DNA of 64,000 nt, taken from NCBI GenBank assembly GCA_046292385.1, contig JBKBRF010000012.1:64001-128000 (forward strand). The letters run 5' to 3'. Below, one piece after another: positions 7,187-63,296 of the stretch. This DNA comes from Armatimonadota bacterium (GTDB taxonomy: Bacteria > Armatimonadota > SYMT01). The position numbers and the translations under genes were made by a program. The notes under the pieces are model-generated. The model ran no database searches, had not been told where the DNA came from, and saw only the letters and a program-made list of their open reading frames with translations. Numbering within the stretch: the first letter of the stretch is position 1; every line of letters starts with the position of its first letter.

Positions 7187-8707
7187 ATGTCTGGCTTCTT
7201 GCATATTACCACCCTTTGCTTGCCGCTGGTACTGATGGCTTCACCAGAGAAAGACCTACTGGCGACTCTTGCCGCTCGCGGCATCACGGTCGTGCGCGAC
7301 CAGGGCAGGATGACCGCTCATCTGGAGTATCCGGATGAGACGGTCGGCACCATCTACCGCGAGCTCACCCTCGCGGGCGCTTCCGCTGGCCTCTCGCTCT
7401 ACTTCGTCGACAACTGGCTCGACGTGGTCAAGCCGGTCCGGGTCAGCGTCTATGCCCGGCTCCGCGGCCTGGCGCGCTTCGGGACCAACCCGAAGCCGTC
7501 CCTCGGAGACCTGGCCGCCAGCATCACCCTCAAGGAGGACGTGGTGCGGCAGCATCTGATTCACTGGTACTTCCACCCGCAGCCGGACAACCTGGAGTGG
7601 CTCTTCTTCCGGGCCGCCCTGGAGATCCAGCGCCGGCCGGGCGGGACGTACGAGTTCCAGCGCGTGCTCCTGGAGGACCTCCTCCACCCGCGGCACCTGG
7701 ATCAGTTCGATGGCATGGTCCGCGCGTTCAACGGCCAACGCGCGTTCCTCTTTACCGAGCAGTATGGACCTGGCTCGGTGGCGGCCGTGGCACAACCCCT
7801 TTCGGCCCCGCTCTCGGGCGGGATCGTGGCACACACCCTTTCGGTCACGCCGGACGGCGCGATCGTGGCCCCCCTGTCGAACCCGTCTGGATTTCAGACC
7901 CCTTACCCGTCTGAAAACCAGACTCGTCTGAAATCCAGACCCCTCGGGATTCCAGACGGGTTCGTGGCTGACCCCCCGGGGAACCCGTCTGGATTTCAGA
8001 CCCCTGGCAATCCCCCTTCCCCCCCATACCCCCCTATCCCCCGGGAGCCTGAGCCTGAGCCTGGCGGCGGCATGGCTCAGAGTACGGCTACCGAGTCCGG
8101 AGAGAGCGCTGGCAGCGAAGAGCGAGCCAGAGCCGCCGCCCTCCTGGCGGACCGGGGCTTTCCCGAACCGGACGCAGCCCGGCTGCTCGATCACCACCCG
8201 GAGGCCCCTCACTGGGCGCTGTGCTGGGGGGAGTGGATCCGGGCGAAGCGCAATCTCCGGGACCCGCTCAGCTTCCTGGCCAAGATGATCCGCGCCGCCT
8301 GCGCCGGCGATGCCGACGCTCGCCGGGAGCCGTGGGCCTACACGGCGCTCCGCGAGCGCGAAGAGCGCGAGGCGGAGCGGGTCCGCGCCCAGGTCAACCG
8401 GCAGCAGGTCGCCGCCGCCCGCCGTGAGGCGGCCGTCACGCAGCCCGCGCCGGAGATCCCCGCGGAGCTGCGGCCGCTCTGGGAGACCCTGTTGCCGGCG
8501 ATCCGGGCGAAGAGCCCGACGCTCTTCGGGCTGCTGGAGAGCGCGGCGCCGGTGCGGATCGACGCCGGCTGCCTGGTGATCCTGACCTCCGCGGCGGACC
8601 ACCTGCGGCGGAAGTGCCGCCAGGTCCGGGAGATCGCGGCGGGCGCTGGCCTGGAGCTCGACGACGTGCGCTTCGTGTCCGAGGCGCGGGAGAACGCGAA
8701 TGGCTGA
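7187..8707 (+). CDS. Putative phage replication initiator
   Basis: Position after bet; internal iteron-like repeats in a low-complexity linker, as in lambda O-type genes. Confidence 0.55.
   Translation: MSGFLHITTLCLPLVLMASPEKDLLATLAARGITVVRDQGRMTAHLEYPDETVGTIYRELTLAGASAGLSLYFVDNWLDVVKPVRVSVYARLRGLARFGTNPKPSLGDLAASITLKEDVVRQHLIHWYFHPQPDNLEWLFFRAALEIQRRPGGTYEFQRVLLEDLLHPRHLDQFDGMVRAFNGQRAFLFTEQYGPGSVAAVAQPLSAPLSGGIVAHTLSVTPDGAIVAPLSNPSGFQTPYPSENQTRLKSRPLGIPDGFVADPPGNPSGFQTPGNPPSPPYPPIPREPEPEPGGGMAQSTATESGESAGSEERARAAALLADRGFPEPDAARLLDHHPEAPHWALCWGEWIRAKRNLRDPLSFLAKMIRAACAGDADARREPWAYTALREREEREAERVRAQVNRQQVAAARREAAVTQPAPEIPAELRPLWETLLPAIRAKSPTLFGLLESAAPVRIDAGCLVILTSAADHLRRKCRQVREIAAGAGLELDDVRFVSEARENANG
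7787..8001. repeat. Iteron-like cluster (candidate replication origin)
   Basis: GTCTG-N5-CAGAC at 7885, 7909, 7926, 7987 and a degenerate copy at 7943; GTGGC-led repeats at 7787, 7826, 7865 with a 39-bp period. Confidence 0.75.
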
Positions 8708-9758
8708 CAAGACCGGCATCGAATGGACCGATGCCACGTGGAACCCGATCCGCGGCTGTACGCGGGTCTCCGAGGGCTGCCGGAACTGCTACGCGGAGCG
8801 GGTTGCCGGCCGCTTCAGCGGCCCCGGGCAGCCGTATGAAGGCCTCGCTCGGATGACCGCCTCCGGCCCGCGCTGGACCGGGGCGGTGTGCCTGGTGCCG
8901 GAGCACTTGGAGGATCCGATCCGTTGGCGAAAGCCGCGCCGGATCTTCGTCAACTCGATGAGCGACCTCTTCCACGAGGGGCTCGGCGACGCGGAGATCG
9001 CCCGGGTTTTCGAGGTGATCTGCCGCAGCCTGAAGGGCCGGCAGCCGCACGAGCGCCACACCTACCAGATCCTCACGAAGCGCGCCGAGAGGATGGAGCA
9101 GTGGTTCGAGTGGGCGGAGCGGAAGTATCCGGGCTGGTTCGGCTCTGACGGGCTGCTCGACCTCGGGGACGTGCAACTCGGGGTCTCGGTGGAGAGCCAG
9201 CAGACGGCAGAGGAGCGGATCCCACACCTGCTGCGGGTGCCGGTGCGGGTGCGATTCCTCTCCTGCGAACCTCTGCTCGGGCCGGTGGACCTCACTCTCG
9301 TGGACCATCTCTTCGGCTGGATCAACGCCCTCACCGGACAGACCTTTGACGGGGACAACGGCAACCCAGTCGGCTCGATTAGCGCCCGCGGTGTCGATTG
9401 GGTGATTGTCGGCGGCGAGAGTGGCCCCGGCGCGCGGCCGATGCATCCGGACTGGGCACGTACCCTGCGGGACCAGTGCCAGGCCGCCGGCGTGGCCTTC
9501 CATTTCAAGCAGTGGGGCGAGTGGAAGCCGATTTCGGAGATGCCCGAAGACGAGTACGACCCGCTCTATGAGCCGGCCCCGGCCCGCGATCCCGAAGCTA
9601 CGCGTCGGTGCCGCGTTGCCACTCGCGCGATCCAGTGGGACGGCGGCGATGGATACCAGTTGATCCAGGGGCACTGCGGCTACCTGACATTCCGCGTCGG
9701 CAAGAAGCGCGCGGGCCGCACCCTGGATGGGCGCACCTGGGATGAGTTCCCCGCGTGA
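8700..9758 (+). CDS. Phage Gp37/Gp68 (DUF5131) family protein
   Basis: TGIEWTDATWNPIRGCTRVSEGCRNCYA, RIFVNSMSDLFH, WVIVGGESG, FHFKQWG. Confidence 0.92.
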   Translation: MADKTGIEWTDATWNPIRGCTRVSEGCRNCYAERVAGRFSGPGQPYEGLARMTASGPRWTGAVCLVPEHLEDPIRWRKPRRIFVNSMSDLFHEGLGDAEIARVFEVICRSLKGRQPHERHTYQILTKRAERMEQWFEWAERKYPGWFGSDGLLDLGDVQLGVSVESQQTAEERIPHLLRVPVRVRFLSCEPLLGPVDLTLVDHLFGWINALTGQTFDGDNGNPVGSISARGVDWVIVGGESGPGARPMHPDWARTLRDQCQAAGVAFHFKQWGEWKPISEMPEDEYDPLYEPAPARDPEATRRCRVATRAIQWDGGDGYQLIQGHCGYLTFRVGKKRAGRTLDGRTWDEFPA

Positions 9759-11563
9759 GCTGGACCTGGTGCGTGGCCTGCACGCGGCCGTGCCCGGGGC
9801 GGGATCCGGATGGCTTCTGCTCTGACGTCGACCGCGCGGAGCTGGCCCGGCGGTCCAACTGGCTCCGGACCGGCCGGTACGAGGACCCGCAGCCGGAGCC
9901 ACCGCCACCCCCGCCCCGCTTTGTCCACCGGCACCTGCCGGAGTACGAGCGGATCGAGGTGCGGCTTGACGGCGAGGTGATGGAGCACGTGTGGTCGGCG
10001 ATCGCGGGCCCGGCCGATCCGGACTGGCGGAACTCCGGCCAGTGCAGCACCGTGCCGCCGGATGGGCGGCAGCGCTACTACCGGGGACACGTGGAGATTC
10101 GCTGGCGGGAGGAGCTAGCGAGAGACGAGGAGACGAGCGAGATGACGATGACGGTAGACCCGCCGGCCAGACTTGCCGGCGTTACGGTGAGAGCTCGGGT
10201 GGCCTGGACCGACCCCGACGGAACCGAGGCATGCGGCACCGTGGTGTCGGTGGATGATGGCGGCCTGGTGGTCAACAAGGATCGCATCGGCCAGACCCGC
10301 CTGCGGTGGAACACGGAGGGGCTGCGGCTGCTGGACGGCTCCGCCGAGACGGAGGCGCCGGCGGAAGGCGGAGTTATGCCACGTGGCATAATCACCGGCC
10401 CGACGCTGCTGCAGATCCAGGTAGGCCAGATCGAGCTCAATCCCCGCAACCCCCGCCAGGTGAGTGAGGCGGATGATGCCGCGGTGGCAGAGCTGGCGGA
10501 GGACATCAAGGCGCGGGGGCTGATCAATCCGATCACTGTCCGCGAGACGGGCGACGAGCACCGGCCTTACGAGGTGATCACGGGCGAGCGGCGCTATCGG
10601 GCCTGCCTGAAAGCGGGCTTGACGCAGGTGCTCTGCATCAATCGGGGCGCCATCCCCGCGGAGCAGGCGTTCGAGGAGACGCTCCGGGAAAACGCGCTGC
10701 GGCAGGACCTCAACCCGCTGGAAGAGGCGCGGGCGGTGGAGCAGGCTCTCGCCGAATTCCACTGGTCGCAGGAGAAGATCGGCACGCTCCTGGGCGGGAA
10801 GTCGCAGAGCTGGATCTCCCGGACGCGGGCCCTGCTGCGGCTGCCGGGAGAGGCGCAGGAGCTGATCAAGGGCGGCAAGCTCCTCCGGAGCATGGGCGAG
10901 GAGCTGCTCACGCTCGCGCAGTGGCCGAAGGACTTAGTCCGCGTCGCGCAGGTCGCCGCGGATGAGGAGTGGACCGCCGCGAAGCTCTCCGCGGAGGTCC
11001 GGGAGCGGCGCCGCCAGCTCGAGGCTCGCGACCAGCCGAAGCTGTTCGGCGGGGACGAGATCGCTCCCGCGGCCACCGCGCCGGCGCCGGTCGCGCCGGC
11101 TGGACCTACCAGCCTGCTCGCGGCCGCGGAGCGGGAGCTGGACGAAGTCGCCGGGCGGATTACGGAGATGGTCTACGCGGATGAGCCGGCCGCTCCCACC
11201 GCTCAGGGTGATAGCACCGGCGCAATCACTACGGCATCCCAACCGACCGCTCCCAGCGCCTCCGAAGCGCTCACCAGCAGCCCCGCGGAGCCGGAGCCGG
11301 AGACCACGCCCGAGACGAAGCCCAACGCGCTGAAGAGCGCTGAGGAGCTCGTCGCGGAGAAGCACGGGGCTGCGGTCCCCACCACCGTCGGCGCGGCCAC
11401 GCTCGATGCCCCCGTCGCGATGTGCATGGTGACGCAGGACTGCGTGACCTGGCTCCGCGGCGACGGCTTCAACGCCAAGGACTTCCTCTTCCGCCTCAAG
11501 TCGGCGGCCTACACCCGCGGCCTCTCCGCCGCGGAGATCCTCACCCAACTGGAGACAGCCTGA
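9755..11563 (+). CDS. parB: ParB/RepB/Spo0J-family protein of the PRTRC cassette, with long N- and C-terminal extensions
   Basis: NPRNPRQ, GLINPITVR, TGERRYRA (CTPase box), ENALRQDLNPLEEA, then HTH SQEKIGTLLGGKSQSWISR; the true start may be internal (e.g. 10142). Confidence 0.9.
   Translation: MSWTWCVACTRPCPGRDPDGFCSDVDRAELARRSNWLRTGRYEDPQPEPPPPPPRFVHRHLPEYERIEVRLDGEVMEHVWSAIAGPADPDWRNSGQCSTVPPDGRQRYYRGHVEIRWREELARDEETSEMTMTVDPPARLAGVTVRARVAWTDPDGTEACGTVVSVDDGGLVVNKDRIGQTRLRWNTEGLRLLDGSAETEAPAEGGVMPRGIITGPTLLQIQVGQIELNPRNPRQVSEADDAAVAELAEDIKARGLINPITVRETGDEHRPYEVITGERRYRACLKAGLTQVLCINRGAIPAEQAFEETLRENALRQDLNPLEEARAVEQALAEFHWSQEKIGTLLGGKSQSWISRTRALLRLPGEAQELIKGGKLLRSMGEELLTLAQWPKDLVRVAQVAADEEWTAAKLSAEVRERRRQLEARDQPKLFGGDEIAPAATAPAPVAPAGPTSLLAAAERELDEVAGRITEMVYADEPAAPTAQGDSTGAITTASQPTAPSASEALTSSPAEPEPETTPETKPNALKSAEELVAEKHGAAVPTTVGAATLDAPVAMCMVTQDCVTWLRGDGFNAKDFLFRLKSAAYTRGLSAAEILTQLETA
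10374..10391. repeat. 18-bp palindrome, copy 2 (inside the parB ORF)
   Basis: Exact match just before the ParB domain. Confidence 0.97.
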
Positions 11564-11748
11564 TGCGAGTGTTCATGTACAACGGCGCACAGCTCGAAGA
11601 TCCGGACCCGTCGATGAGCCCGGACGACGTGCGCAAGCAGTATGCGGCGGTCTACCCCGCGCTTACCAACGCCGGCATCGTGGGACCGAAGCAGAGCGGA
11701 GACGTGGCGACCTATGAGTTCAAGGTCAGTGTCGGCACCAAGGGGTAG
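11563..11748 (+). CDS. PRTRC system protein C (ubiquitin-like)
   Basis: MRVFMYNGAQLEDPDPSMSPDDVRKQYAAVYPALTNA...YEFKVSVGTKG, ends in Gly; TGATG coupling to parB. Confidence 0.88.
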   Translation: MRVFMYNGAQLEDPDPSMSPDDVRKQYAAVYPALTNAGIVGPKQSGDVATYEFKVSVGTKG

Positions 11749-11754
11749 CGAGCC

Positions 11755-13152
11755 ATGCGCGAGTTCTTTCAAGGAAGCGATCGCGCGGGCCCGCAGCGGC
11801 GCCCCCGCCGCCGGCGGGACGGAGCTCGCGTTGGAAGTCGCCGCGGACGAGGGGGCGCTGAAGGTCGGGAGCTCTCTTCAGCAGCTCTGCTCTTCCAAGG
11901 CTGGGGCGAGGGTGGTGATCACACCACCTTCCTCCGCCCTCCCACCACCTCTGTAATCCTGCCGGGGCTGAGAGCGGACGTGCCGCTGGAGGTGGAAGTC
12001 TCCGGCTCAGAGCAGCAGCTTGCCATCTTCGCGGAGGTCCTCTTGGAAGAGGGGATCCTCCGCGAAGAGGACTGGCTCGGCACGCTGTGCGGCTCGATTC
12101 AGCACGGCCTGGTGCGGTGGGTGAACGTGGAACTGGGCTGCGAGCGGCTTCAGCACTTCGACGTGTCGCTAGCCTACACCGACGACATCGATGAGGCGCA
12201 GATGGACGATCCAGGCTGCTTCAACTTCACGGACTGGGGCTGGGTCGACAAGTTCGGTCAGAAGGATGAGACGACCGGCTGCTTCATCCTGACCTGCGCC
12301 ACCGGGCATTACTTCGACGTCGGCACCTGGGGCGCGGAAGTGTTCGTCGGGACCCAGATCTTGGCGCTCGAGCGGCTTTGCCCCGGTGCCGGCTGGAGCG
12401 TGTTCGCCCTGGTCCAGGAAGCGGTGGACCAGCAGTTCTTCGGCGCCACTCCCGTCTGGGGGGATCGCTTCTTGGAGTTCTGCGGCTACACCTTCGGCGA
12501 GGACGCCTCCACGGAGGCGGACGAGGACGGCGGAGACGATCCGGATGAGGGGCAACTGCGGAAGCGCGTGCGGATCGGGGCTGCCGGCGAAGGTTATGCC
12601 GCAGACCTGGAGGACGATCATTTGGCGGAGCTCACCCGTACTCGCTTCCGCCGGGCCTTCCCGGAGCAGTGCTTCAGCGCCACGTGGGATCCCAAGGTCG
12701 TGAAGAAGGCGCTTCGGCGCTGTCGCGGCGCCGGGGATGCATGCCTGCGGGAGACGCTGCAGACCGCGCTCGAGCTGGCGCAGCTCGGAGCGGAGCTCGA
12801 TCCCAAGCGGCCGCTTAACGAGTGGGGCTACTTCGCCCGGGATGGTGTGGAAGTGGTCAACTCGGTGACGGTGCGCTGGTCCGAGGACGACGAGCTGCCC
12901 CGACTGATCGACGACTACTTCGAGCACGCTCAGAACTGCTGCGGGCTCACCACCGAGATCTTCGTGCGCGGTTTCCAACTCGCCGCTCCGGAGACGATCC
13001 GAACCTGCGTGCGCGGTCTCGGCCAGGCGCTGCGGATCCTGGCGAAGACCGACCACCTACTCGAGCTGCTCCATCAGCCGACGCGCCTGGTCGGGATCCT
13101 GGCGGATCGTAAGGGCGAGTCTTGTCCCGAGGAGAGAAGCGAATGCGTGTAG
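11755..13152 (+). CDS. PRTRC system protein F-like
   Basis: Position between C and B; ILPGLRADVP, ALERLCPGAGWSV, RLIDDYFE; acidic. Confidence 0.7.
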   Translation: MREFFQGSDRAGPQRRPRRRRDGARVGSRRGRGGAEGRELSSAALLFQGWGEGGDHTTFLRPPTTSVILPGLRADVPLEVEVSGSEQQLAIFAEVLLEEGILREEDWLGTLCGSIQHGLVRWVNVELGCERLQHFDVSLAYTDDIDEAQMDDPGCFNFTDWGWVDKFGQKDETTGCFILTCATGHYFDVGTWGAEVFVGTQILALERLCPGAGWSVFALVQEAVDQQFFGATPVWGDRFLEFCGYTFGEDASTEADEDGGDDPDEGQLRKRVRIGAAGEGYAADLEDDHLAELTRTRFRRAFPEQCFSATWDPKVVKKALRRCRGAGDACLRETLQTALELAQLGAELDPKRPLNEWGYFARDGVEVVNSVTVRWSEDDELPRLIDDYFEHAQNCCGLTTEIFVRGFQLAAPETIRTCVRGLGQALRILAKTDHLLELLHQPTRLVGILADRKGESCPEERSECV

Positions 13153-13868
13153 AGGATATGACCACCGGCAGCCGTCCCTACTACCTGCGCCGCGCCGTGC
13201 TGTTGTACGAAGCGGAGAACGGCTCCGCCTTCGCCAGCGTGAACCCGGTCCGCCGCCGGAACAAGAAAGCGACGATCGGCGCCGGGCGTTGCCTCTCCCG
13301 GGATGCCTTGGCGGAGCTGAACCGGGAGCTTGCCGGCCTCCCGAGCCGGCGGGAGCTCCTGCCGCCGCACGTGCTGTTCGCCGACGGCTCGCGAACACTC
13401 TGGTACCGGCCGGCGCACCGGGCGCCGATCTTCTTCAACACCGGCAGCAAGAAGCTCGACTCCTTTTTCCGGGGCAAGCAGGTTCTCTATCCCCCGCTGC
13501 TGTTTCTGGCGATGCCCCAGAACCTGTATGCCTGGGGGCTCGGCTCCGATGACCGCCCGTCCGGGGAGACGCACCTCTACCGCGCGCCCTGCCTGAACCT
13601 CTACGGGGACGGGCACATGTGCGCGGGCACCTCGAAGTTGCCGCTGGAGGTCTCTACCGACGTGCGGCTCTTCGAGAAGGCGTTCTTCGACACTGCCTTC
13701 TCCCACAGCAACCTCGGCGGCCAGGAGCTCTGCCGTTACGCGGGTGGGCATGACGCGCTCTGGAAGGCGCTGGCGGACCCGGAAGTAACCCCCGACTGGC
13801 CGGCCTGGCTGGCGCCGCTCCGGGGCAAGAGCGGGCCGCTTACCGCGGCGGAGGTGCTCAACCGATGA
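13143..13868 (+). CDS. PRTRC system protein B (prokaryotic E2-like)
   Basis: LWYRPA.R..FF, YPPLLF, RP..ETHLYRAP..N.Y.DG..C.G, FF.TAFSH. Confidence 0.85.
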   Translation: MRVEDMTTGSRPYYLRRAVLLYEAENGSAFASVNPVRRRNKKATIGAGRCLSRDALAELNRELAGLPSRRELLPPHVLFADGSRTLWYRPAHRAPIFFNTGSKKLDSFFRGKQVLYPPLLFLAMPQNLYAWGLGSDDRPSGETHLYRAPCLNLYGDGHMCAGTSKLPLEVSTDVRLFEKAFFDTAFSHSNLGGQELCRYAGGHDALWKALADPEVTPDWPAWLAPLRGKSGPLTAAEVLNR

Positions 13869-14707
13869 GCGAGCACCGGATAGCCGCACGCCTCCTGGAG
13901 ACGGAGGTCACGATTCACCTGGCCGGCTGCGGCGGTAACGGCGCGCAGATGCTCTACCGTCTGGCCCGGATGGACCGCGCCATCCGCTCGCTGGGGCACC
14001 CGGCCGGGATCTACGTTCGGGCATTTGATCCGGACCTGGTGAGCGCGGCGAACCTCGGGCGCCAGCTCTTCACTCCGGATGACATCGGACGGAATAAGGC
14101 GGACGTGCTGGTACAACGCGTCAACCTGTTCCACGGGCTCTCCTGGGATGCGGAGCCGGAAGCCTACGGTGGCCAGGGCGAGACGTACGAGTCCGATTAC
14201 TTTGGTGCACGCACGTCGATGCGCCGGGCGTGCGACATCCTCATCACCTGCGTCGACTCCGCGAAGGCGCGGCGGGAGATCCATCACGGCATCACGCAGC
14301 ACCGGCGCGGGGCACAGCACACTCCGCTCTACTGGCTGGATCTGGGCAACACCCAATCCACCGGGCAGGTGGTTCTGGGTGAGCCGATCGACGCCGTCAA
14401 CGCCCAGGGCAGCCGACGCCCGCGGCTACCGACGGTGGTGGAAGTCTTCCCAGAGCTGCTGGATGAGACGATCCCGGAGGACAACCGCCCGAGTTGCTCG
14501 CTCGCGGAGGCGCTCGAGTCGCAGGACCTCTTCATTAATGACCTGATCGTCGGATGGGCCGGGCAGCTCCTCTGGGATCTCTTCCGCAAGGGCAAGATCA
14601 CCAAGCACGGAGCGTTCATCAACGCCGGTGACTATCTGGTAAGTCCGCTTCCCGTGCCGGCGCCGAATCCGGAGAAGCCGGCGCGGAAGACGAGGGCACG
14701 GCAATGA
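13865..14707 (+). CDS. PRTRC system ThiF-family (E1-like) protein
   Basis: GCGGNG, FDPDLVSAANLGRQLF..DIGRNKA, CVDSAKAR, YWLDLGN, PSCSLAEALESQDLFIN. Confidence 0.92.
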   Translation: MSEHRIAARLLETEVTIHLAGCGGNGAQMLYRLARMDRAIRSLGHPAGIYVRAFDPDLVSAANLGRQLFTPDDIGRNKADVLVQRVNLFHGLSWDAEPEAYGGQGETYESDYFGARTSMRRACDILITCVDSAKARREIHHGITQHRRGAQHTPLYWLDLGNTQSTGQVVLGEPIDAVNAQGSRRPRLPTVVEVFPELLDETIPEDNRPSCSLAEALESQDLFINDLIVGWAGQLLWDLFRKGKITKHGAFINAGDYLVSPLPVPAPNPEKPARKTRARQ

Positions 14708-14967
14708 GCGAGTTCGACCCCCTCAACCTCGACCTCTGGCAGGAGCTCTGCGAGTTCCTGGCGAGCCGTCCGCGGAAGTGTGCCTACGCCAGGTTCATTC
14801 CGAATCACCTGAGCCCGCTGGTATCGGCCGACGCCAAGTCGGCACGAGCCCAGGTCGGCCTGATCTTCTGGTCCACGGGCTGGGGCTGGCGTCTCCGGAA
14901 GAACTGGCAGGAGCGGCTGGACACGCTGCGGCGCGACGGGATCCCGGCGGAAGGCGGCACCCGATGA
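14704..14967 (+). CDS. Hypothetical protein
   Basis: ATGA coupling on both sides. Confidence 0.55.
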   Translation: MSEFDPLNLDLWQELCEFLASRPRKCAYARFIPNHLSPLVSADAKSARAQVGLIFWSTGWGWRLRKNWQERLDTLRRDGIPAEGGTR

Positions 14968-17171: not shown

Positions 17172-17397
17172 GGCGCCCCTGAAAAAGTCGCCGAAAGTCG
17201 CGATGCATTTCCGCCTCCACGTACGTCATGCCTCCTGATGCGACAAGAGCCCGCTCTCCCGGTGGGAAAGCAGGCTCTGTCATACCTGGGCAGGGATGCG
17301 CCACAGGCGGGCTTCACACTCCAGTTCGGGGTGCCGACCGGCCTTCCCTGCCCCTTTCGACGCGGTGCCACTGACTGGCACCAGGAAGGGAACGACT

Positions 17398-18030
17398 ATG
17401 GTTCAGATCGTCGAACAGAACACCAGGCGAGTCATCCTCGAGGTCGAAGGCGATGACCTTCGGGGGGCCGACCTCCGGGGGCGGTCGCTTCGCAACGCGA
17501 GCCTGGAACATAAGGACCTCTCCGAGGCCGATCTCACGGGGGCGGATCTGCGAGGCGCCTATCTCCTGGGCGTCACCATCAACGCCGGCACCCGTCTCCA
17601 AGGAGCCGATCTCCGCGGTGCCAACCTGAGCTGTGTGGATTTGCGACGGCTGGACTTGAGGGGGATCTCCTTTCGCCACGCGGATCTCGACTCCACCGAC
17701 TTCATTGAGGCGGATCTGAGGGGCGCCGACCTTTCAGGAGCAAATCTCAACGAAGCGAGATTGAACCGAGCAGATCTGGCCGACGCGGATCTCTCCGGAG
17801 CTCGGTTGACTAAAGCTGGGATGAGCCGCGTACACCTGCAGGGTGCCGACCTTCGAGGTGCCGACCTCTCGACCGCCCGTATAAGCGAAGCGTATGTAGA
17901 GGGGGCAGTCTACGACGCCAAAACGCAGTGGCCGGAGGGTATCGACCCCAGAACCGGGGGGGGCCAGTGTATAAGCGCCCCGTGGGAGTATCCGTTCCCC
18001 CTGCGGCAGTTCTTGAACGGTCGAGGTTAG
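17398..18030 (+). CDS. Pentapeptide repeat protein
   Basis: Many A(D/N)Lxx repeats (GADLRGANLS). Confidence 0.92.
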   Translation: MVQIVEQNTRRVILEVEGDDLRGADLRGRSLRNASLEHKDLSEADLTGADLRGAYLLGVTINAGTRLQGADLRGANLSCVDLRRLDLRGISFRHADLDSTDFIEADLRGADLSGANLNEARLNRADLADADLSGARLTKAGMSRVHLQGADLRGADLSTARISEAYVEGAVYDAKTQWPEGIDPRTGGGQCISAPWEYPFPLRQFLNGRG

Positions 18031-18329: not shown

Positions 18330-18358
18330 TAGACACGCAGGGCTAACCCACCTATAAT
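18330..18358 (+). promoter_or_regulatory. Sigma70-type promoter
   Basis: TAGACA-N17-TATAAT, near consensus, in a locally AT-rich patch. Confidence 0.65.
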
Positions 18359-18824: not shown

Positions 18825-19389
18825 GAGCGATCAGCAGCCGGCGCGCTCGCGGAAGGAGTTCCTGGCCGCGCCCGGCCGGAACCACAATCCGCATACCGGG
18901 ATGCCGTTGCGCCCCGGCCAGCGTCTCCCCACCGAGGGCGAGGAGCAGGAGTCGTTTGACGACTGGCTCTACCACCGCCGCTCTGCCCCCTTCCCGGATG
19001 ATGGCCGGTGGGAGATCACCGAGAGGCATGCCTACCGTTGGCTCTCCCACCGCTTTGAGGGGCTCCTCGACAATCCCCGTCGCGCTGCGGGGCTGACCCG
19101 CCAGGGCGTCGACGCCAATGACCTCCTCCTCCTGATTCTGGACCTCCACGCCTACGCCGCGCTGCGCGAGCGAGCCTGGCAGGCGGGCCTGCCGACGCCG
19201 TGCCTCGTGGAATACCTCCGCGCGGACCGGGAGCGGTGGGGCTGGTGGGAGAAGGTGTTCCGGCTGGTGCGCGCGATGAACCGGGACGAGGATCCGGCGG
19301 TGATCGACGCGCTGCGTGAGGATCTTCGCGCGGCCGGCGGAAACCCGGATGCGGATGACGAGGGAGAGGGCAATGAAGGGGGGCTATGA
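18781..19389 (+). CDS. Hypothetical protein
   Basis: Overlaps both neighbours; GC3 bias. Confidence 0.55.
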   Translation: MSAETAARAHRPRPESDQQPARSRKEFLAAPGRNHNPHTGMPLRPGQRLPTEGEEQESFDDWLYHRRSAPFPDDGRWEITERHAYRWLSHRFEGLLDNPRRAAGLTRQGVDANDLLLLILDLHAYAALRERAWQAGLPTPCLVEYLRADRERWGWWEKVFRLVRAMNRDEDPAVIDALREDLRAAGGNPDADDEGEGNEGGL

Positions 19390-19990
19390 CCCCTCGGCGG
19401 CGGCCGCGGCGGCCACCAAGATCAAGTGGTTGAAGCGGGAGGACTGGGACGGGCTGGTAGACGCGGCGGCGGAAGAGCGGCGGGAGGAGCTGCTCGGGAT
19501 CCGGGACCAGGCGATCATCGCCCTCGGGCTCTCCTCCGGGCTTCGCGTCTCGGAGCTGTGCAACCTCAACGTCGAAGACCTCGACCTGAAGGACCGGCGG
19601 CTGACTGTCCGGCGTGGGAAGGGCGGCAAGCCGCGGCCGGGGCGCTTCTCCGAAGACGCGCGCGACCTGATCGAGATCTGGTTGCAGGTGCGGCCGACGC
19701 AGCCGGAAGACACCGCCCGGGAACAGCGCGGACCGCTCTGGATCTCCCGCAAGGGTGGGCGGCTGGCGGCTCGGACGGTCCGGGAGATGATGCAGAAGGC
19801 CGGCGAGAAGGCGGCCCTCGGCCACGTCCACCCGCACATGCTCCGCCACTCCTGCGCGACGGAGCTCCTCCGGAAGACCAACAACCTCCGCCAGGTGCAG
19901 GTGCACTTGGGGCACGCCCGGATCACCACCACCGAGATCTACGCGCACGTGATCAACAACGACCTAGAGAAGGCGGTAGAGGACCTGTAG
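19373..19990 (+). CDS. Tyrosine recombinase, catalytic domain only (about 205 aa)
   Basis: SGLRVSEL, RRGKGGK, HPHMLRHS, LGHARITTTEIY: complete R-K-H-R-H-Y set. Confidence 0.92.
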   Translation: MKGGYDPSAAAAAATKIKWLKREDWDGLVDAAAEERREELLGIRDQAIIALGLSSGLRVSELCNLNVEDLDLKDRRLTVRRGKGGKPRPGRFSEDARDLIEIWLQVRPTQPEDTAREQRGPLWISRKGGRLAARTVREMMQKAGEKAALGHVHPHMLRHSCATELLRKTNNLRQVQVHLGHARITTTEIYAHVINNDLEKAVEDL

Positions 19991-20002
19991 AGAGGGAGAC
20001 CC

Positions 20003-20248
20003 ATGAACTACGAGATCAATTTGGAGGTAACTGTCACCGCGGATGAGATCCGAGGAATGGTCGCGGAGAAGGTCAACAACTCCCGGATGCATCGCCTACC
20101 GTTTACGGTCAAGCCGGAGGACGTGGACGTTCAGCCGGACGGCACAGCCCTCATCCGGTGCCAGCGGCAGGCGGCTGATAACAGGACTTGGTGGGCCGAG
20201 AACAACCAGCTCACCGAGGAAGAGAAGCAGAAGCGAGGGACGCAGTGA
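20003..20248 (+). CDS. Hypothetical protein
   Basis: GAGGGAG RBS. Confidence 0.6.
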   Translation: MNYEINLEVTVTADEIRGMVAEKVNNSRMHRLPFTVKPEDVDVQPDGTALIRCQRQAADNRTWWAENNQLTEEEKQKRGTQ

Positions 20249-20619
20249 GCACGATCCATCGACAGCACCGCAAACAGCGCACCTTCTTCCGGCTTCTGGC
20301 GCGCGAGCAGCGCCGGTGCTTCCAGTCGCTACACGACCGCGGAGAACTGAAGGTGCCCGACGAGCCCGCCCGACCGGATGAGCAGGACGACTGGGCCGAC
20401 GAGGAGGATGACGATCCAGGGCAGCAGGGCTGCCTGCGCTGCGGCGCCCCGAGCTGGTACGTCCGCACAGGCTACTGCTCAGACGAGTGCCTTGGAGCGG
20501 ATGCCGCCGAGATCGAAGATGAGGGGCGCTGCGGTCACTGCGGCCGGCCCGGACCCTACGGAGAGCCTTGCTTCCGACCGCTGGACGGGCAGCTCGAAGA
20601 GTGCGGGCAGTTCATCTGA
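20245..20619 (+). CDS. Cys-rich hypothetical protein
   Basis: CLRC, YCSDEC, CGHC. Confidence 0.5.
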   Translation: MSTIHRQHRKQRTFFRLLAREQRRCFQSLHDRGELKVPDEPARPDEQDDWADEEDDDPGQQGCLRCGAPSWYVRTGYCSDECLGADAAEIEDEGRCGHCGRPGPYGEPCFRPLDGQLEECGQFI

Positions 20620-20627
20620 ATTCCGTA

Positions 20628-20665
20628 GCTGAACCGCCGAATTCCAATGAATTCGGCGGTTCAGC
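20628..20665. terminator. Perfect 17-bp stem hairpin between convergent genes
   Basis: GCTGAACCGCCGAATTC-CAAT-GAATTCGGCGGTTCAGC. Confidence 0.65.
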
Positions 20666-20740
20666 GGTCACGGTTCGCAGGTTCGGCGCCAGGGAGGCTA
20701 TTCCGCAAGTTCAATGTGGGGGGGTTAACGCGAGTGCTCC

Positions 20741-22195
20741 TTACTTCACGATTGTCTGGGAGCTGTTCGGCACGTATCCCCAAACGTCGCGCCGTCCATC
20801 TGGAAGTTCTACGGTGAATCGTAACATCCCGCCCTCCCATTTAAGAACACCAACCTGAGGGGCGACCACTCGAAGACTCTGCGCCTTGTTCCGCGTCAAA
20901 CGTGAGAACAAGGCGCGGAAATCATTGATGGCAACCTGATTCATCAATCGTCGGTTCACTTCCGGAGAAAGGCGGGAGATCTCTAGACGCGCCCAGGTTG
21001 ACCCAGCCACTCGCGCTGCATCCTCCAGAACCATGGCATGAGTTCTAGCATAGCGCGCTGTCATCAATCCCACGTTACGCTCTTCGACTCGGCATATTAG
21101 GTCAAGCGACGGTGGAACGCAGGCTTGCATCTTTCGGTAGAGATCGACCGGGTCTTTGGCGGGACCAGGCCGTTCACGACCAAGAACCCAGTCACCGCTC
21201 CGATCCGGTCGTAGTGTCCAACCGTAGAGCGCACCGATCCCGAGCGCCAGATCATCGGCTCTCATGCTCGGAGCCGGAGAAAGGTATACCCGTCGCTTCG
21301 ACGCATAGTCGGGAGTGCGAACGTCCCGCCCGACCCGGTTCTTCAACACTGCCGCAATCGCATCCACTCGGATCTCTCCCTGGGGGAGTTTCAACTCCGT
21401 GTGAAAAGCCTTCGGCGCCTGCGGAAGATCAGCTAATGCCTCACCTCGGAATGAGACTGGTCTGACGTCCCACGGTGGAGGTGGAGGGGCTTGGAAGTTC
21501 GACTTGGCGTTATCCCGCGGATACGCGATCCAGTAGACCATGGGCTCTCGAAGGGTGGGGTCGACTTCGAGTTCCGCGCCTTTCCAACCAACGAAGAGCT
21601 TCTCCATCCGCTCGCTATAGGTCTCCTGGCTGGAGAAGACCTGCGCGGCATTTACGGTAAGCCAAAGCCGACGTTGCTCATCCGGGAGGGCAGCGAGTGG
21701 TAGCCCCTCGGGTCGCCGCATCGCGGCACGCTGCTCCACTGTCAGGGAGTCCCAGAACCGATTCTGGTTCTCGGGGTAGAGCGGCGACAGGGGATATGGC
21801 GCGAACGGGTGAACCAATCGATGCAGATCTGCTCCTGTCTGTTGTAACTCCTCCAGCTCTAAACTGAGCGTCTCGCGTTCATCCCCATAACGACGATGAA
21901 ACAGGAGAACACGACTACCCTGACGTCCGTAAAGGTCGAAATCGGTGGCCAGTGCGTCGAGTGCGCGCGAGACGGGTACGTCCTCAAGCGCCATTTCCAA
22001 GCGGTGTTCGACCTGCGGGATCTCCGCGATGACACTAAGACCTGTAGCCTGTGCTACGGTGTCCAACACCTCGGCGAGCTTCGCTCCGCGGGAGAGCGTC
22101 ACCTTCGGTTCCATCGAGGCCTTGGGACCGTCTTGGGCGGCGGATGCGGCTACCCCGAGGGTGGCTACGAGCGCAAGAATTAACCTAATCTGCAT
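20741..22195 (-). CDS. Secreted protein with STN-like (secretin/TonB short N-terminal) segments; moron
   Basis: Signal peptide; KVTLSRGAKLAEVLDTVAQATGLSVIAE...DVPVSRALDALA; lower GC, opposite strand. Confidence 0.6.
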   Translation of the reverse strand: MQIRLILALVATLGVAASAAQDGPKASMEPKVTLSRGAKLAEVLDTVAQATGLSVIAEIPQVEHRLEMALEDVPVSRALDALATDFDLYGRQGSRVLLFHRRYGDERETLSLELEELQQTGADLHRLVHPFAPYPLSPLYPENQNRFWDSLTVEQRAAMRRPEGLPLAALPDEQRRLWLTVNAAQVFSSQETYSERMEKLFVGWKGAELEVDPTLREPMVYWIAYPRDNAKSNFQAPPPPPWDVRPVSFRGEALADLPQAPKAFHTELKLPQGEIRVDAIAAVLKNRVGRDVRTPDYASKRRVYLSPAPSMRADDLALGIGALYGWTLRPDRSGDWVLGRERPGPAKDPVDLYRKMQACVPPSLDLICRVEERNVGLMTARYARTHAMVLEDAARVAGSTWARLEISRLSPEVNRRLMNQVAINDFRALFSRLTRNKAQSLRVVAPQVGVLKWEGGMLRFTVELPDGRRDVWGYVPNSSQTIVK

Positions 22196-22211
22196 GTTCA
22201 CCCCTGATGAC

Positions 22212-22237
22212 GCGAGCGACGGTCTCCCGTCGCTCGC
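22212..22237. terminator. 11-bp stem hairpin between the two moron genes
   Basis: GCGAGCGACGG-TCTC-CCGTCGCTCGC. Confidence 0.45.
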
Positions 22238-22257
22238 CGGAGCAGGTAACTTCGGGA

Positions 22258-22902
22258 CTAGTTGCCGATCTGGATCTGTGCCCAGGCCACGGCTGATCCA
22301 TGGAATCCCGTACCCATGGAATCAGCAACGGTGAACACCATGATCGACCCCTTCACCTCCATCGTCATGTTGATAGAAGCAGACTTCTGATCGCTGCGGA
22401 AGTTGGTGTTTGCCGGGCCGGGATCATAGGCCGTCCATGTAGGGAATTGTCCTGTTACCGAGTTGTTGGCGACGGCGCTCACGTTCACGGCTACAGTGCC
22501 CGCTGAAGCCGTTGCCTCCGCCTCACCTCTCGAGAATGAGTTTCCGTTCGCAGCGGTAGATCCGGCGGTTGCCTCCGCTCGGCAATCTCCCTTTAACAGC
22601 ACCGAAAGGGCGGCAGGATTCCCATTCTTGGTGTAAACTCTCTTATAGCTAAACTCCTGGTGAGCGTGCGTAAAGCTGTTCTGGCCGTTACTGCTAGCTG
22701 AGTTCGCACTAGCTTGGGCGTAATAGCTATTACTAGCATCGCTTTTACCGCTACCCTCCGTTGAGTGAGAGATGTGGTCCACATCGGAGTCTAACTCGAG
22801 GTTTCCCACGGTCCAGCTATCTGCGAGTGCGGGAGATGCAGCCATGATCCCGACGCAGATGCAGCCGACCGGGACTGTCCGAGTGCGCCAGTTCCTTCTC
22901 AT
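22258..22902 (-). CDS. Secreted Ser/Asn/Ala-rich protein; moron
   Basis: Signal peptide ending ALA-D, AAGGAG RBS, visibly lower GC. Confidence 0.7.
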   Translation of the reverse strand: MRRNWRTRTVPVGCICVGIMAASPALADSWTVGNLELDSDVDHISHSTEGSGKSDASNSYYAQASANSASSNGQNSFTHAHQEFSYKRVYTKNGNPAALSVLLKGDCRAEATAGSTAANGNSFSRGEAEATASAGTVAVNVSAVANNSVTGQFPTWTAYDPGPANTNFRSDQKSASINMTMEVKGSIMVFTVADSMGTGFHGSAVAWAQIQIGN

Positions 22903-23288
22903 ACGGATTCTCCTTAGCGAGCAGTGTCGGCCGAGCGAGCGACGGAACGCCCACAGGCCAGGTAATTGAGGCGAGATAGAATCGAGGGGATCAGGACAGG
23001 ATAGCTAGGCCCCACGACCCTACCGGATCTAGTTTCTTCCTAAAACGTAAGGACCCTTTGCTTGAGTAGTAGCGGTATTGTTGAGAAAATCGCAAGAAGG
23101 TGTGAGAGCCGCATGAAAGCGGCGGTTGGCGCTCACCCCCCGTGGTAGTGTGAGATTAGAAGAGTGAGATCCGATCTCACCACAATGCGTGAGAGCTGAA
23201 TACACCACGAAGGGGCCGGCGACGGCCCCGCAAAGAAGAGAGGGGGCTCCCGAAAGGGGGTCCCCTCTCGCACTTTCTGGGGGCCGCC

Positions 23289-23540
23289 ATGGACAGAGCC
23301 GAGGAGCCGAGGAAGCCGCTGTCCTGGTGGGACATCTCGATCTCCGGACGGAGGGTTCCGGCTCAGGAGGACGTCACAGTCAATGCCGTCGTTCGCCGCA
23401 GCCGCTTCCGCTTCGGGGCGCGCCTGCCCTGGAAATGGGCGCTCGTTATCGGGCTCCTGATCTTGGGCTCCCATCCGTGGGGCCGATGGGTGCTCGAGCA
23501 GGCGCAGTGGTTGGCCCGACAGATGGGGGTGGCGATCTAA
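23289..23540 (+). CDS. Small membrane protein (holin candidate)
   Basis: One hydrophobic segment; first gene of the late operon. Confidence 0.4.
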   Translation: MDRAEEPRKPLSWWDISISGRRVPAQEDVTVNAVVRRSRFRFGARLPWKWALVIGLLILGSHPWGRWVLEQAQWLARQMGVAI

Positions 23541-23803
23541 TGGGAGTTTTCGGCGTCTTCAAAGGCAAGCTCTGGGACCTCGTCAAGGGAAACGTCTGGG
23601 AGATCCTACGCTCGGTGGTCTCCAAGGCCGCGGCCGAAGAGGTCGCAGACGGCATCCAGGCACACTTCCAGCGCATCGGTCCGGAAGGCCGCGAGCGACT
23701 GGCTGCGAAGCTGGTCAAGATCGCGGACCTGCTCCGGGCCGACAAGAGCGGCAAAGCGGCGGCGCAGGCCTCCGCGACACTGGTTGGCGAGCTGGAGCTA
23801 TGA
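23540..23803 (+). CDS. Hypothetical protein
   Basis: TAATG coupling. Confidence 0.55.
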   Translation: MGVFGVFKGKLWDLVKGNVWEILRSVVSKAAAEEVADGIQAHFQRIGPEGRERLAAKLVKIADLLRADKSGKAAAQASATLVGELEL

Positions 23804-24084
23804 CCTGCGCGCTTGACGCGCGCGACCAGACACCAGATGAAGTCCGGCTTCGGGGAGCGATCCTCGAGCCGGGCTTTTTCAATGTCGGCCGCGGCGTAAC
23901 CCTCGACCTTACGGAGTGCACCCTCAGCCTCCGCGCGGTGGGCGGCCTGGTCCGCCTGGTCCGGGAAGAGCGGCGCGTCCAGATCCGGATGCCCTACACC
24001 TGCCAGCCGCAGCAAGCGATCGAGACGGTCTTCGGACCGCACCACCTCCACTACCTCGGCGGCACTGACTGGGAGCTCTCCTGA
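23800..24084 (+). CDS. Hypothetical protein
   Basis: ATGA coupling. Confidence 0.5.
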   Translation: MTCALDARDQTPDEVRLRGAILEPGFFNVGRGVTLDLTECTLSLRAVGGLVRLVREERRVQIRMPYTCQPQQAIETVFGPHHLHYLGGTDWELS

Positions 24085-25304: not shown

Positions 25305-25940
25305 ATGGAAGACCTGGCGCGGCCCCAGCCGCCCGTGGACCTGCTCGCCGCGGATGAGGAGACGATCCTCTTCGCGCCGGCGCACGAGCTGGCGGAGTGG
25401 GTCGAGGCCACGTTCCTGGACGAGAGCGGCCTACTCCACAACTGGGAGCACGAGCACCTCCAGGATGCCACCGTCGCCTTCCTCTGGACGAACACGCGAA
25501 ACGAGAAGGGTGGCCGGCGCATCGTCGGCACCGCGGAAATCCCCGCGAGCCAGGGGGCCACGCGCTGGGTGAAGGCGAGGCTCGAGTATCAACTCTGGAA
25601 CTGGTTCGGCGAGCTGCCGGACTTCCTCATCACCATCGACGCGAGCTACTGGGCGGCGATCTCCGACGCGGCCGCGTGTGCCCTGATTGAGCACGAGCTC
25701 TACCACTGCTCGTTCAAGGTGGATCGCGACGGCGACCCCCGCACCGATCCGGATGGTGAGCTGATCTGGTCGCTGAAGGCGCACGACGTCGAGGAATTCA
25801 TTGGCGTGGTCCGCCGCTACGGCCCTGGGGCTGCTTCGGGCGGGGTGGCCGCGCTGGTAGAGGCGGCGCAGCACCGGCCGCTTTTCTCCGCGGAGGAGAT
25901 CGCCGAGGCGTGTAGCGGCTGCGGTGTCTGCGCCCGCTGA
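25305..25940 (+). CDS. Phage putative metallopeptidase
   Basis: ALIEHELYH and HDVEEF.GVVRRYG. Confidence 0.85.
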   Translation: MEDLARPQPPVDLLAADEETILFAPAHELAEWVEATFLDESGLLHNWEHEHLQDATVAFLWTNTRNEKGGRRIVGTAEIPASQGATRWVKARLEYQLWNWFGELPDFLITIDASYWAAISDAAACALIEHELYHCSFKVDRDGDPRTDPDGELIWSLKAHDVEEFIGVVRRYGPGAASGGVAALVEAAQHRPLFSAEEIAEACSGCGVCAR

Positions 25941-57951: not shown

Positions 57952-58003
57952 CTCAAAAACCGATTCTCGAAAGAGAGTGCGGGTTCGATCCCCGCCTTCG
58001 GCA
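57952..58003 (+). tRNA. 3' half of tRNA-Leu(CAA), attR fragment (not an intact gene)
   Basis: CTCAAAA loop, ACCGA 3' stem, variable arm TTCTC-GAAA-GAGAG, GCGGG-TTCGATC-CCCGC, CTTCGGC-A; 5' anticodon stem and D arm missing. Confidence 0.85.
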
Positions 58004-58022
58004 AGCACAACTTGTAGTCCCC

Positions 58023-62168: not shown

Positions 62169-63296
62169 TCACAGCTTGATCGACCGGAGATCGATCTTTT
62201 CCCGGTCCCATTCGCCCAGGCCCAGCGCGCCGGCGATCTCCACGTGCTCCGGCTGCCGGTGAATGAAGGTGCTGAACTGGTCCGGCTTGTCCTCCACCAG
62301 CTTCGGCTTCCCGACTTCCACCCGCTTGGCGTCGATCACTTCCCAGCCGATTCGATCGAGCGCTACCGGATCGGTAGCGAAGTAGAGCGACTGGTGCTCC
62401 CACACGAACTGCGGGTTGGCGCTCGGACCGCCGTGATAGAGGCCCTTCACCCCATCCATGATGTGGAGCACCGTCTTGTTCCGGATGATCGGCATGGAGA
62501 CCACGGCCGGGATGAAGAAGTTGCACGCGTTCAGGCTGCGAGTGCCGTGGCTGCGCGCGACGTTGTTCACCAGTCCGTGGGAGAGGTTCTTCAGCGCCAT
62601 CGTGATCCCGGCCGACTGGTGGTCTTTCAGCAGCGGCAGGTTGATCAGCTTGTCGACCTCCTGCGTGATGAACTTCGCGGCGTAGGAGCGGCGCGCCGTC
62701 TCGTTCTCCAGGGGGTAACCGGGCAGCGTGAGCGGCAGGTCGAGGTAGTGCTCCGGATCGTAGCCGGTGATGTCGTGCTGGACGTCGTCGTACTTCTCGG
62801 CCGCGTGGGAGATCCGGACCCCCTCCGGCAGCCACTTGTCGAACCCCGCCTGGAAGAACTGGTCCTTGTAGCGGTCGTAAACGACGATATCCTTGCGCTT
62901 GATCCCCGCTGCTTCGAGCCCGGCGATCACCTCCCGCACGACGGAGGCGTCCGAGATCACGTGCGGCATTCCCACCGGGTTGAGCTTCAGGCCGATCACC
63001 TCGCCCGGCTGGACGAACTGCTTCCACGCTTCCGCCCAGTCCGAGGCGCCGGTCAGCTCCGTCATCCCGCGGCGGAGCATCGCCCGGATTGTCTCCGGGT
63101 GGTAGACCCCACCGGTGATCGACCGCTCGCTCTGCACCTTCACGACCCGGCCGCGGTGCGGGCCGGGGATGGCAAGCTTCGACTTCGGCGCGTTCGACCG
63201 TGTCTCCGCCGAAGCGCCGGTCTGCGTCAGTCCCGCGGCGGCCAGCGCGGCCACTCCCCCACCCAGCGACTTCAAGCACTCGCGACGATCGAGCAT
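62169..63296 (-). CDS. Tat-exported DUF362-like protein (host)
   Basis: DRRECLK signal; IGLKLN, D.LINLPLLKDH..AGITMALKN..G, TDPVALD. Confidence 0.85.
   Translation of the reverse strand: MLDRRECLKSLGGGVAALAAAGLTQTGASAETRSNAPKSKLAIPGPHRGRVVKVQSERSITGGVYHPETIRAMLRRGMTELTGASDWAEAWKQFVQPGEVIGLKLNPVGMPHVISDASVVREVIAGLEAAGIKRKDIVVYDRYKDQFFQAGFDKWLPEGVRISHAAEKYDDVQHDITGYDPEHYLDLPLTLPGYPLENETARRSYAAKFITQEVDKLINLPLLKDHQSAGITMALKNLSHGLVNNVARSHGTRSLNACNFFIPAVVSMPIIRNKTVLHIMDGVKGLYHGGPSANPQFVWEHQSLYFATDPVALDRIGWEVIDAKRVEVGKPKLVEDKPDQFSTFIHRQPEHVEIAGALGLGEWDREKIDLRSIKL

Follow-up and report, generated by a model that had tools for sequence, protein, structure and literature searches.

The closest described relatives of the locus reported here are the type 6d operons, which encode a ubiquitin-like protein (Ubl), an E1-like protein, an E2-like protein and an alpha-helical protein; in their description the E2-like member has a Cys and, on the C-terminal side of this residue, a His (Iyer, Burroughs and Aravind 2006, PMC1779556). 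The PRTRC system (TIGR03734-03742) is equal to this operon type. Our literature search returned no functional study of PRTRC and no account of forms lacking its JAB peptidase, protein A. We analysed a PRTRC cassette at positions 9755-14707 of a 64,000-nucleotide (nt) stretch, hereafter the window (positions 64001-128000 of contig JBKBRF010000012.1, here C12), from the genome of an Armatimonadota bacterium. The cassette shares with PRTRC/type 6d the C, B and ThiF families and, less securely, F, a ParB gene upstream followed by C-F-B-ThiF, an E2-like protein whose invariant Cys is followed towards the C-terminus by a His, and a mobile carrier. It differs in lacking A and protein E, in a ParB that is not of PRTRC type, in an extra open reading frame (ORF) that we term X, and in being carried by a prophage instead of a plasmid or an integrative and conjugative element (ICE). 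We give roughly 60% to the reading that it is a lineage variant of PRTRC which temperate phages of the host phylum carry, as an exchangeable module, in their early replication and recombination operon. The narrower claim, that it is an intact and maintained A-less and E-less variant, is very probably correct.

The genes for ParB, C, F, the E2-like B and the E1-like ThiF were confirmed to be tightly coupled in a prophage early operon, and the full gene order is ParB-C-X-F-B-ThiF, with no JAB and no E. Coordinates and profile scores are collected in Table 1. A preliminary description, made from the sequence before any database search, had assigned C, B and ThiF to the PRTRC families, and all three score above the curated NCBIfam or Pfam cut-offs. 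Its assignment of F stood in part: the window protein falls below the cut-off of TIGR03742, yet aligns across model positions 4-343 of 343 with E 2.1e-11, and its paralogue on contig C45 of the same genome reaches 59.6 bits, over the cut-off. The upstream DUF5131 gene overlaps ParB by 4 nt, ParB overlaps C by 1 nt (TGATG), C and F are separated by 6 nt, and 4-nt overlaps join B to ThiF and ThiF to the next gene. Candidate starts of B are TTG 13122, ATG 13143 and ATG 13158.

The coupled ParB that had been singled out is indeed present upstream, but this order is general in PRTRC, plasmids included, and the protein is of generic Spo0J/Noc-like type, outside the PRTRC-specific family. Against the PRTRC-specific model TIGR03734 it scored 65.3 bits (cut-off 278.6), and only model positions 6-130 of 555 were matched. 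An alignment of nine cassette ParBs places ParB_N and a helix-turn-helix (HTH), with a GERR motif, at residues 218-418; the ORF also has a linker that is acidic and rich in Pro, and its C-terminal domain is small. GC content at third codon positions (GC3) is 0.80-0.92 over the full length of the ORF. The first ~100 residues (window 9755-10070) are Cys-rich, with a Pro run after them. Residues 4-103 share 42% identity with C45:11183-11458, which in a second prophage is an ORF by itself, 7 kb upstream of ParB; because of this resemblance, the window ParB may be a fusion.

A and E are missing from the prophage, as the preliminary description held, and also from the whole host genome (7.04 Mb, 91 contigs, 98.45% complete). 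The protein A model TIGR03735 found no match in that genome even at E<=10, and the best match to the protein E model TIGR03741 had E 0.37 and lay on a different contig. The same two models gave 271 and 89.6 bits in phage Dina, and 224.7 and 66.2 bits in phage BgVeeders33. A JAB gene had been thought conceivable in the part of the prophage to the left of the window. There is none there: since the att repeats bound the element, its sole content in that part is the integrase. A fusion of E to the C-terminus of ParB was considered but gained no support, as comparison with four E proteins gave only low-complexity similarity. The protein D model TIGR03739 was uninformative, because it gave 0 matches in Dina, BgVeeders33 and a canonical-cassette genome just as in the host genome.

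The reduced gene set recurs within the host phylum. PRTRC-ThiF was detected in 12 of 401 sampled genomes (10 of them over the cut-off), and neither A nor E was found in any of these 12. The order ParB-C-F-B-ThiF is kept in 10 of 12 loci compared, from several families of the phylum; of the two exceptions, L140 is cut by a contig end and L032 shows B and ThiF only. Judged from these comparisons, the reduced set is a lineage trait and not an accident. Locus L032 (IMG/VR contig, L032:8756-10864) carries a B with an N-terminal extension, then a small Cys-rich ORF, then ThiF; C, F and ParB were not detected nearby, and this may be a still more reduced form of the cassette. Among relatives found through ThiF, A lies between B and ThiF in 19/21 viral-contig loci and 79/80 genome loci, and the three exceptions, L012, L032 and L033, are also the loci whose ThiF is closest to that of the window. 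A search of viral and metagenome contigs with an F alignment recovered only L012 again. Neighbours of the related cassettes include RecT, primase, helicases, recombinases and HNH proteins, functions of replication and recombination in phages and integrative elements.

The same genome contains a second JAB-less cassette, in another prophage on contig C45. Its proteins are 52% (ParB), 55% (C), 31% (F), 40% (B) and 51% (ThiF) identical to those of the window, and two paralogous cassettes at 31-55% protein identity within one genome support long-term maintenance. By contrast, the product of the ORF that follows ThiF (14704..14967) shares 94% amino acid identity with its C45 counterpart. DNA identity between the two regions rises from 0.57-0.74 to 0.96-0.98 at ~14738, about 30 nt beyond the ThiF stop. 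Because of this mosaic boundary, the cassette behaves as an exchangeable module with diverged alleles.

Phages Dina (NC_055026, Ralstonia) and BgVeeders33 (OK665841, Burkholderia) resemble the window prophage in being temperate phages with a PRTRC cassette among their early or non-structural genes. Their ThiF proteins are 42-46% identical to that of the window, and BgVeeders33 resembles it further in having an X-like ORF directly before F. Unlike the window, both phages have A and E, and their C carries a 60-residue extension past KG; such an extended C of phage-borne cassettes presumably needs cleavage. A PRTRC cassette with all parts is carried by Burkholderia gladioli prophage AB2, according to the accessible text of PMC13366799.

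JAB-less cassettes also occur outside the host phylum. In a plasmid collection, this ThiF type was present in 373 records, 140 of them from Pseudomonas, and a homologue of Dina A in 154, a count from a single tblastn query that may miss divergent A proteins; the top ten genera for A did not include Pseudomonas, Vibrio or Aeromonas. That PRTRC usually includes A, as had been stated, is therefore an overstatement and holds only in part, A-less cassettes being common. The P. aeruginosa megaplasmid NZ_CP099961 reads ParB-E-C-(458 aa)-B-ThiF, 3 nt separating the last two genes, and the Tunicatimonas plasmid NZ_CP120684 reads E-C-x-x-ThiF. Neither has a TIGR03735 match above noise or PF14464 anywhere, with Dina as positive control; the best TIGR03735 match in NZ_CP099961 was 11.9 bits (E 0.024), far under the cut-off. 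Vibrio plasmid NZ_OQ622009 is A-less as well, and Xanthomonas and Methylomonas plasmids carry A. In the three A-less plasmids, as in the window, ThiF directly follows B and C ends at Gly. They differ from the window in keeping E or an E-sized gene, in having no detectable X and in a ThiF only 33-40% identical; the Pseudomonas plasmid differs also in its PRTRC-type ParB. The distribution of A on a 31-row ThiF tree requires 3-4 changes, and the ThiF trees leave the deep branches unseparated; we accordingly claim neither a single loss of A nor its ancestral absence.

C of the window does end in a free Gly (...VGTKG, with the stop codon TAG immediately after), but this is no peculiarity of JAB-less cassettes. 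In A-containing loci 87 C matches end TKG-stop, 7 end KGR and 1 ends KGAA; two additional C-labelled rows ending VLP are the 61-aa X-like ORF of BgVeeders33, not C. The C profile had been seeded with this ORF beside the window C, and on iteration it nonetheless settled on true C proteins. The free terminal Gly is therefore the norm for C in the family, with or without A. In Dina, BgVeeders33 and the Xanthomonas plasmid, all with A, C runs ~60 residues past KG, which suggests a pro-protein cleaved by JAB. Such extended forms were seen only in A-containing cassettes, and in A-less cassettes C ends at Gly in 13/13: the ten loci of the window lineage that hold C, all KG-stop, and the Pseudomonas, Tunicatimonas and Vibrio plasmids. 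A strictly mature C wherever A is absent fits a role for A as an optional processing enzyme and deconjugase, although this is a correlation only. What is particular to the window cassette is the joint absence of A and E, the type of its ParB and its phage carrier.

The cassette had been taken to consist of five genes, and this requires correction: a conserved small ORF, X, lies between C and F. X starts at ATG 11714, with GGAG 12 nt upstream, has its first 35 nt in common with the end of C, and runs to ...PPSSALPPPL and a TAA stop (11954-11956) that abuts the conserved core of F, model position 4 of TIGR03742 aligning to F residue 68. Its peptide follows the motif F.EAIA..RSG ... G.PVLPPS..LPPLP-stop, and homologues occupy the same position in 8 further loci, including L140, which was not among the eight seed loci (E 4e-12). 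When the last 198 nt were compared frame by frame (BLASTP, E<=1e-3), 8/36 pairs were significant in the X frame, 0/36 in the F frame and 0-1/36 in each of the other four. In most loci the X stop shares nucleotides with an NTG codon of the F frame, five times as CTGA and once as GTGA. The X profile matched nine database proteins, unnamed or called hypothetical, and X itself had no Pfam or NCBIfam family match. With the same profile, the N-terminus of the L139 F, read in frame, reached 10.7 bits, and the ORF that immediately precedes F in BgVeeders33 reached 14.1 bits; among 240 shuffled controls the maximum was 6.3. No fusion of X to longer proteins was found, a negative that is weak evidence. 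A relationship of X to the C extension of Dina and the Xanthomonas plasmid gained no support, at scores of -1.1 and -1.5 bits. From this conservation we regard X as probably a real sixth gene acting with F.

The true start of F is correspondingly probably near 11959-11980, and the Arg-rich first ~68 residues of the longest ORF are probably a frame artefact and not real protein. GC3 of this extension is 0.63, against 0.85 in the core, which begins at about residue 69, and six other loci show the same pattern. The AlphaFold2 predicted local distance difference test (pLDDT) is <50 over residues 1-73. A database protein identical to the window F is called from GTG 11980 (390 aa).

Predicted catalytic positions are conserved in the sequences aligned. 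In B, numbered from ATG 13143, Cys160 and His188 are invariant in 18/18 aligned sequences, and the Cys and His are kept in 44/44 of a wider set; the His is C-terminal to the Cys, as in the type 6d description. ThiF has a GxGGxG loop (residues 21-26), CVD and a PSC motif with Cys211, all invariant in 18/18, and the conserved Cys211 is presumably catalytic. Among solved structures, Uba1 adenylation domains come nearest to ThiF in sequence (E 7.8e-6); for B and C the PDB gave no sequence match. The AlphaFold2 model of B has pLDDT 89.6, and in a wide structural search its top 24 rows were all UBC/E2-type, over model residues 72-223, the best being 1zdn_A (Z 4.8, root mean square deviation 3.9, 101 residues aligned). 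This is consistent with a diverged E2 fold in the model, and is not proof of one. The model of F is mixed alpha/beta (pLDDT 77.5, predicted template modelling score 0.76, 267 residues at pLDDT >=90). Neither the PDB sequences (best E 0.33) nor Foldseek (best E 1.6) gave a match to F; a wide structural search with the whole >400-residue model, domains unsplit, gave a best Z of 4.6, with 0/48,161 chains at Z>=5. A stored model of the identical 390-aa F is poor (pLDDT 0.30) and gave no usable matches. The near-invariant residues of F are D106, W107, G213, P303, W375 and D386.

The prophage around the cassette is ~59.8 kb long and is delimited by a 55-bp att direct repeat. At its left end, just outside the window, lie tRNA-Leu(CAA) and the gene for a tyrosine integrase. 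From there to the cassette the genes encode, in turn, a divergent HTH repressor, an excisionase-like HTH protein, RecT, an unassigned product and DUF5131, and genes for terminase, portal, protease, capsid and tail lie to the right of the cassette. The proposed placement in an early replication and recombination operon is borne out: a consensus scan placed neither a promoter nor a terminator around the cassette, and terminator-like sites were not in excess (9 vs 6.3 +/- 2.5 in shuffles). A scan for the canonical parS consensus gave one 3-mismatch match, at 20887, not above chance. Contigs aligned to attR showed loose ends at both edges of the att repeat only; these are uninformative on excision, because the attL copy accounts for them.

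Several other features of this prophage and genome were recorded. The DUF5131 protein matches the PADLOC candidate-system models PDC-M41B (240 bits) and PDC-M30B (232.6 bits). A pentapeptide-repeat protein with many paralogues across the host genome is encoded in the early operon (window 17296-18030, +). The top sigma-70-like promoter match of the early region (11/12 positions) lies downstream of the cassette at window 18330-18358 (+), where a further transcription unit may begin. In mid-prophage, a short tyrosine-recombinase ORF (224 aa, window 19316-19990, +) is followed by a lower-GC island (0.60, window 20000-24000), whose minus-strand ORFs at 20741-22201 and 22258-22902 had no family match. 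A large-terminase homologue at contig C40:19089-20423, 73% identical to that of the window, points to a third related prophage in the host genome.

Table 1. Features of the cassette, its prophage and related loci; coordinates are those of the window unless a contig or locus is named.
Feature	Coordinates	Strand	Evidence or remark
attL	contig 62194-62248, 1.8 kb left of window		55-bp repeat
DUF5131 protein	8700-9758	+	coupled to ParB start
ParB-family ORF, 602 aa	9755..11563	+	PF02195 61.5 bits; PF17762 53.8 bits; TIGR00180 110 bits (cut-off 58.45)
PRTRC protein C (Prok_Ub), 61 aa	11563..11748	+	TIGR03738 82.1 bits (cut-off 45.95); PF14454 81.2 bits
ORF X, 80 aa	11714..11956	+	unannotated; frame +1 relative to F; between C and F
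PRTRC protein F, longest ORF 465 aa	11755..13152	+	TIGR03742 43.4 bits (cut-off 58.4)
PRTRC protein B (Prok-E2_D, E2-like)	13122..13868	+	TIGR03737 138.9 bits (cut-off 131.45); PF14460 88.4 bits
PRTRC ThiF-family E1-like protein, 280 aa	13865..14707	+	TIGR03736 290.4 bits (cut-off 144.75)
Small ORF, 87 aa	14704..14967	+	coupled to ThiF stop; 3' mosaic boundary of cassette
PF18894 metallopeptidase family gene	25305-25940		same prophage
attR	57952..58006	+	55-bp direct repeat of tRNA-Leu(CAA) 3' part
Second cassette ParB-C-X-F-B-ThiF	contig C45:18788-23920 (locus L132:10632-15923)		JAB-less; another prophage, same genome
Extended C, Dina	L002:6037-6426		
Extended C, BgVeeders33	L003:5818-6207		
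Extended C, Xanthomonas plasmid	L149:2942-3337		

With these genes the cassette would probably conjugate C to proteins, as the preliminary description proposed. ThiF would adenylate the exposed Gly61 of C and take C onto Cys211, and C would then be handed to Cys160 of B. B, together with F and the small protein X (linked to F by translational coupling and, in one relative, by fusion), would attach C to target lysines. ParB, a DNA binder of CTP-clamp type made from the same transcript, would be either a platform on phage DNA or itself a substrate. No processing peptidase would be needed, because C is made mature, and tagging with no dedicated isopeptidase would not be actively reversed within a short lytic or induction programme. 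Proteins on ParB-coated DNA, which the preliminary description raised as targets, might be among those modified. All the chemical steps of this scheme are inferred, as are the parts played in it by F, X and ParB, the target, the irreversibility and the timing of expression.

A number of points weigh against this account. The role of F is a guess, because it gave no fold match and, across 102 sequences, none of its Cys, His or Ser residues is invariant. The fold match of B is weak, with 0/48,161 chains at Z 5 and no Foldseek match at E<=0.001. The F frame is stop-free across the X stretch in 9/9 loci, and X may be translated separately, joined to F by frameshifting, or untranslated. The promoter scan covered sigma-70-type sites only. 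The lytic lifestyle does not by itself explain the loss of JAB, because Dina and BgVeeders33 keep theirs. Finally, a host peptidase or an unrecognised phage peptidase could reverse conjugation, the candidates being a JAB protein encoded on contig C19 and the PF18894 protein of the same prophage.

This last point can be stated as a full alternative, in which the C19 JAB, the PF18894 metallopeptidase or F itself deconjugates in trans, so that the system is reversible and the absence of JAB only apparent. We think it rather unlikely. The genome does contain one Prok-JAB gene (83.5 bits, on C19), and the prophage does encode a member of a metallopeptidase family; moreover, the alpha-helical protein of type 6d operons was suggested as a possible enzyme by Iyer et al. 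(2006) (PMC1779556, available portion). The C19 gene, though, adjoins a PALP (CysM-like) gene, which we take to be a setting of sulfur-carrier cysteine synthesis. A scan of 74 ORFs neighbouring the related cassettes found no peptidase family at E<=1e-4, the residue pattern of F already described speaks against an enzymatic role in cleavage, and A-less plasmids of 98 kb and 395 kb contain no JAB at all.

The two diverged cassettes that this genome carries, and the abrupt recombination boundary where the cassette ends, could alternatively be read as signs of a prophage-borne module for defence, exclusion or inter-phage competition that works on behalf of the lysogen or against rival elements, the diverged alleles marking specificity or incompatibility. 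Precedent exists in the characterised bacterial Ubl systems, Bil and type II CBASS (an antiphage signalling system that relies on cyclic oligonucleotides), which are antiphage (PMC11601596, as far as its available text goes). Consistent with such a role, a preprint (10.64898/2026.10.01.756045, available text) describes a hotspot of recurrent variation at PRTRC protein B in a Phocaeicola prophage. According to the same part of PMC11601596, Bil is antiphage and keeps its JAB; type II Bub operons typically have no JAB; Bub operons encode the serine protease BubE, and the E1 and E2 of Bub have no catalytic Cys; no Bub operon had yet been shown to protect against phage; and both Bil and Bub are host-encoded. 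PRTRC is not mentioned in that text. The window cassette shares with Bil (BilABCD) and Bub the logic of Ubl, E1 and E2 working with no E3, but no sequence-family match. PADLOC 2.0 likewise gave no match for ParB, C, F or B, and only weak E1-E2 matches for ThiF (<=20.8 bits). The cassette is also joined by translational coupling to the early lytic operon around it, has neither promoter nor terminator to itself, is not placed as a moron would be and matches its neighbours in GC content. We consider the defence or competition reading improbable on balance.

A stronger version of the conjugation scheme would make the cassette a self-contained one-way tagging machine, loaded by ParB onto the DNA of its own phage early in infection or induction, with X-F as an E3-like unit that selects substrates. 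Allelic divergence between co-resident prophages would keep the tagging of each phage orthogonal and serve as a mark of phage identity or competition, not as host defence; going by the sequences we hold this to be decidedly unlikely.

ThiF-family enzymes and small beta-grasp partners classically make thiocarboxylates, and C with ThiF might accordingly form a sulfur-carrier or other acyl-adenylate system, for example one that modifies phage nucleic acid. The missing deconjugase would fit, as would the DUF5131 gene directly upstream of the cassette and the DNA methylases that flank the cassette in L033 and L134. An E2-like protein with an invariant Cys is nevertheless always present, C ends KG where sulfur carriers end in GG, no rhodanese or desulfurase occurred among the neighbour ORFs scanned, and DUF5131 is adjacent in only 2/12 loci, which together make this a very improbable reading. 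That the cassette is a decaying, non-functional remnant of a full PRTRC operon after loss of A and E, as the sub-cut-off score of F and the two missing genes might suggest, is hardly credible given the same reduced set in 10/12 loci from several families, reading frames that are all intact and coupled, catalytic residues invariant in 18/18, and an F profile that finds 733 representatives at E<=0.001.

We therefore return to the reading of a PRTRC lineage variant carried as an exchangeable module by temperate phages of the host phylum. New here are the second, diverged JAB-less cassette with its mosaic boundary, and ORF X. PRTRC is widespread, with this ThiF type in hundreds of plasmid records, in ICEs and in phages, and the present locus is a minimal natural version of it that offers a convenient set for reconstitution. 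The picture of the family is corrected in three respects: JAB is dispensable in much of it; where JAB is absent, C is made mature in all 13 cassettes examined; and a small gene before F was overlooked in the window lineage. The system may serve counter-defence, replication control or inter-phage competition, and any one particular role is at present doubtful. If tagging does take place during phage development, this would be a phage-encoded Ubl conjugation system, whereas the characterised bacterial ones are host defences.

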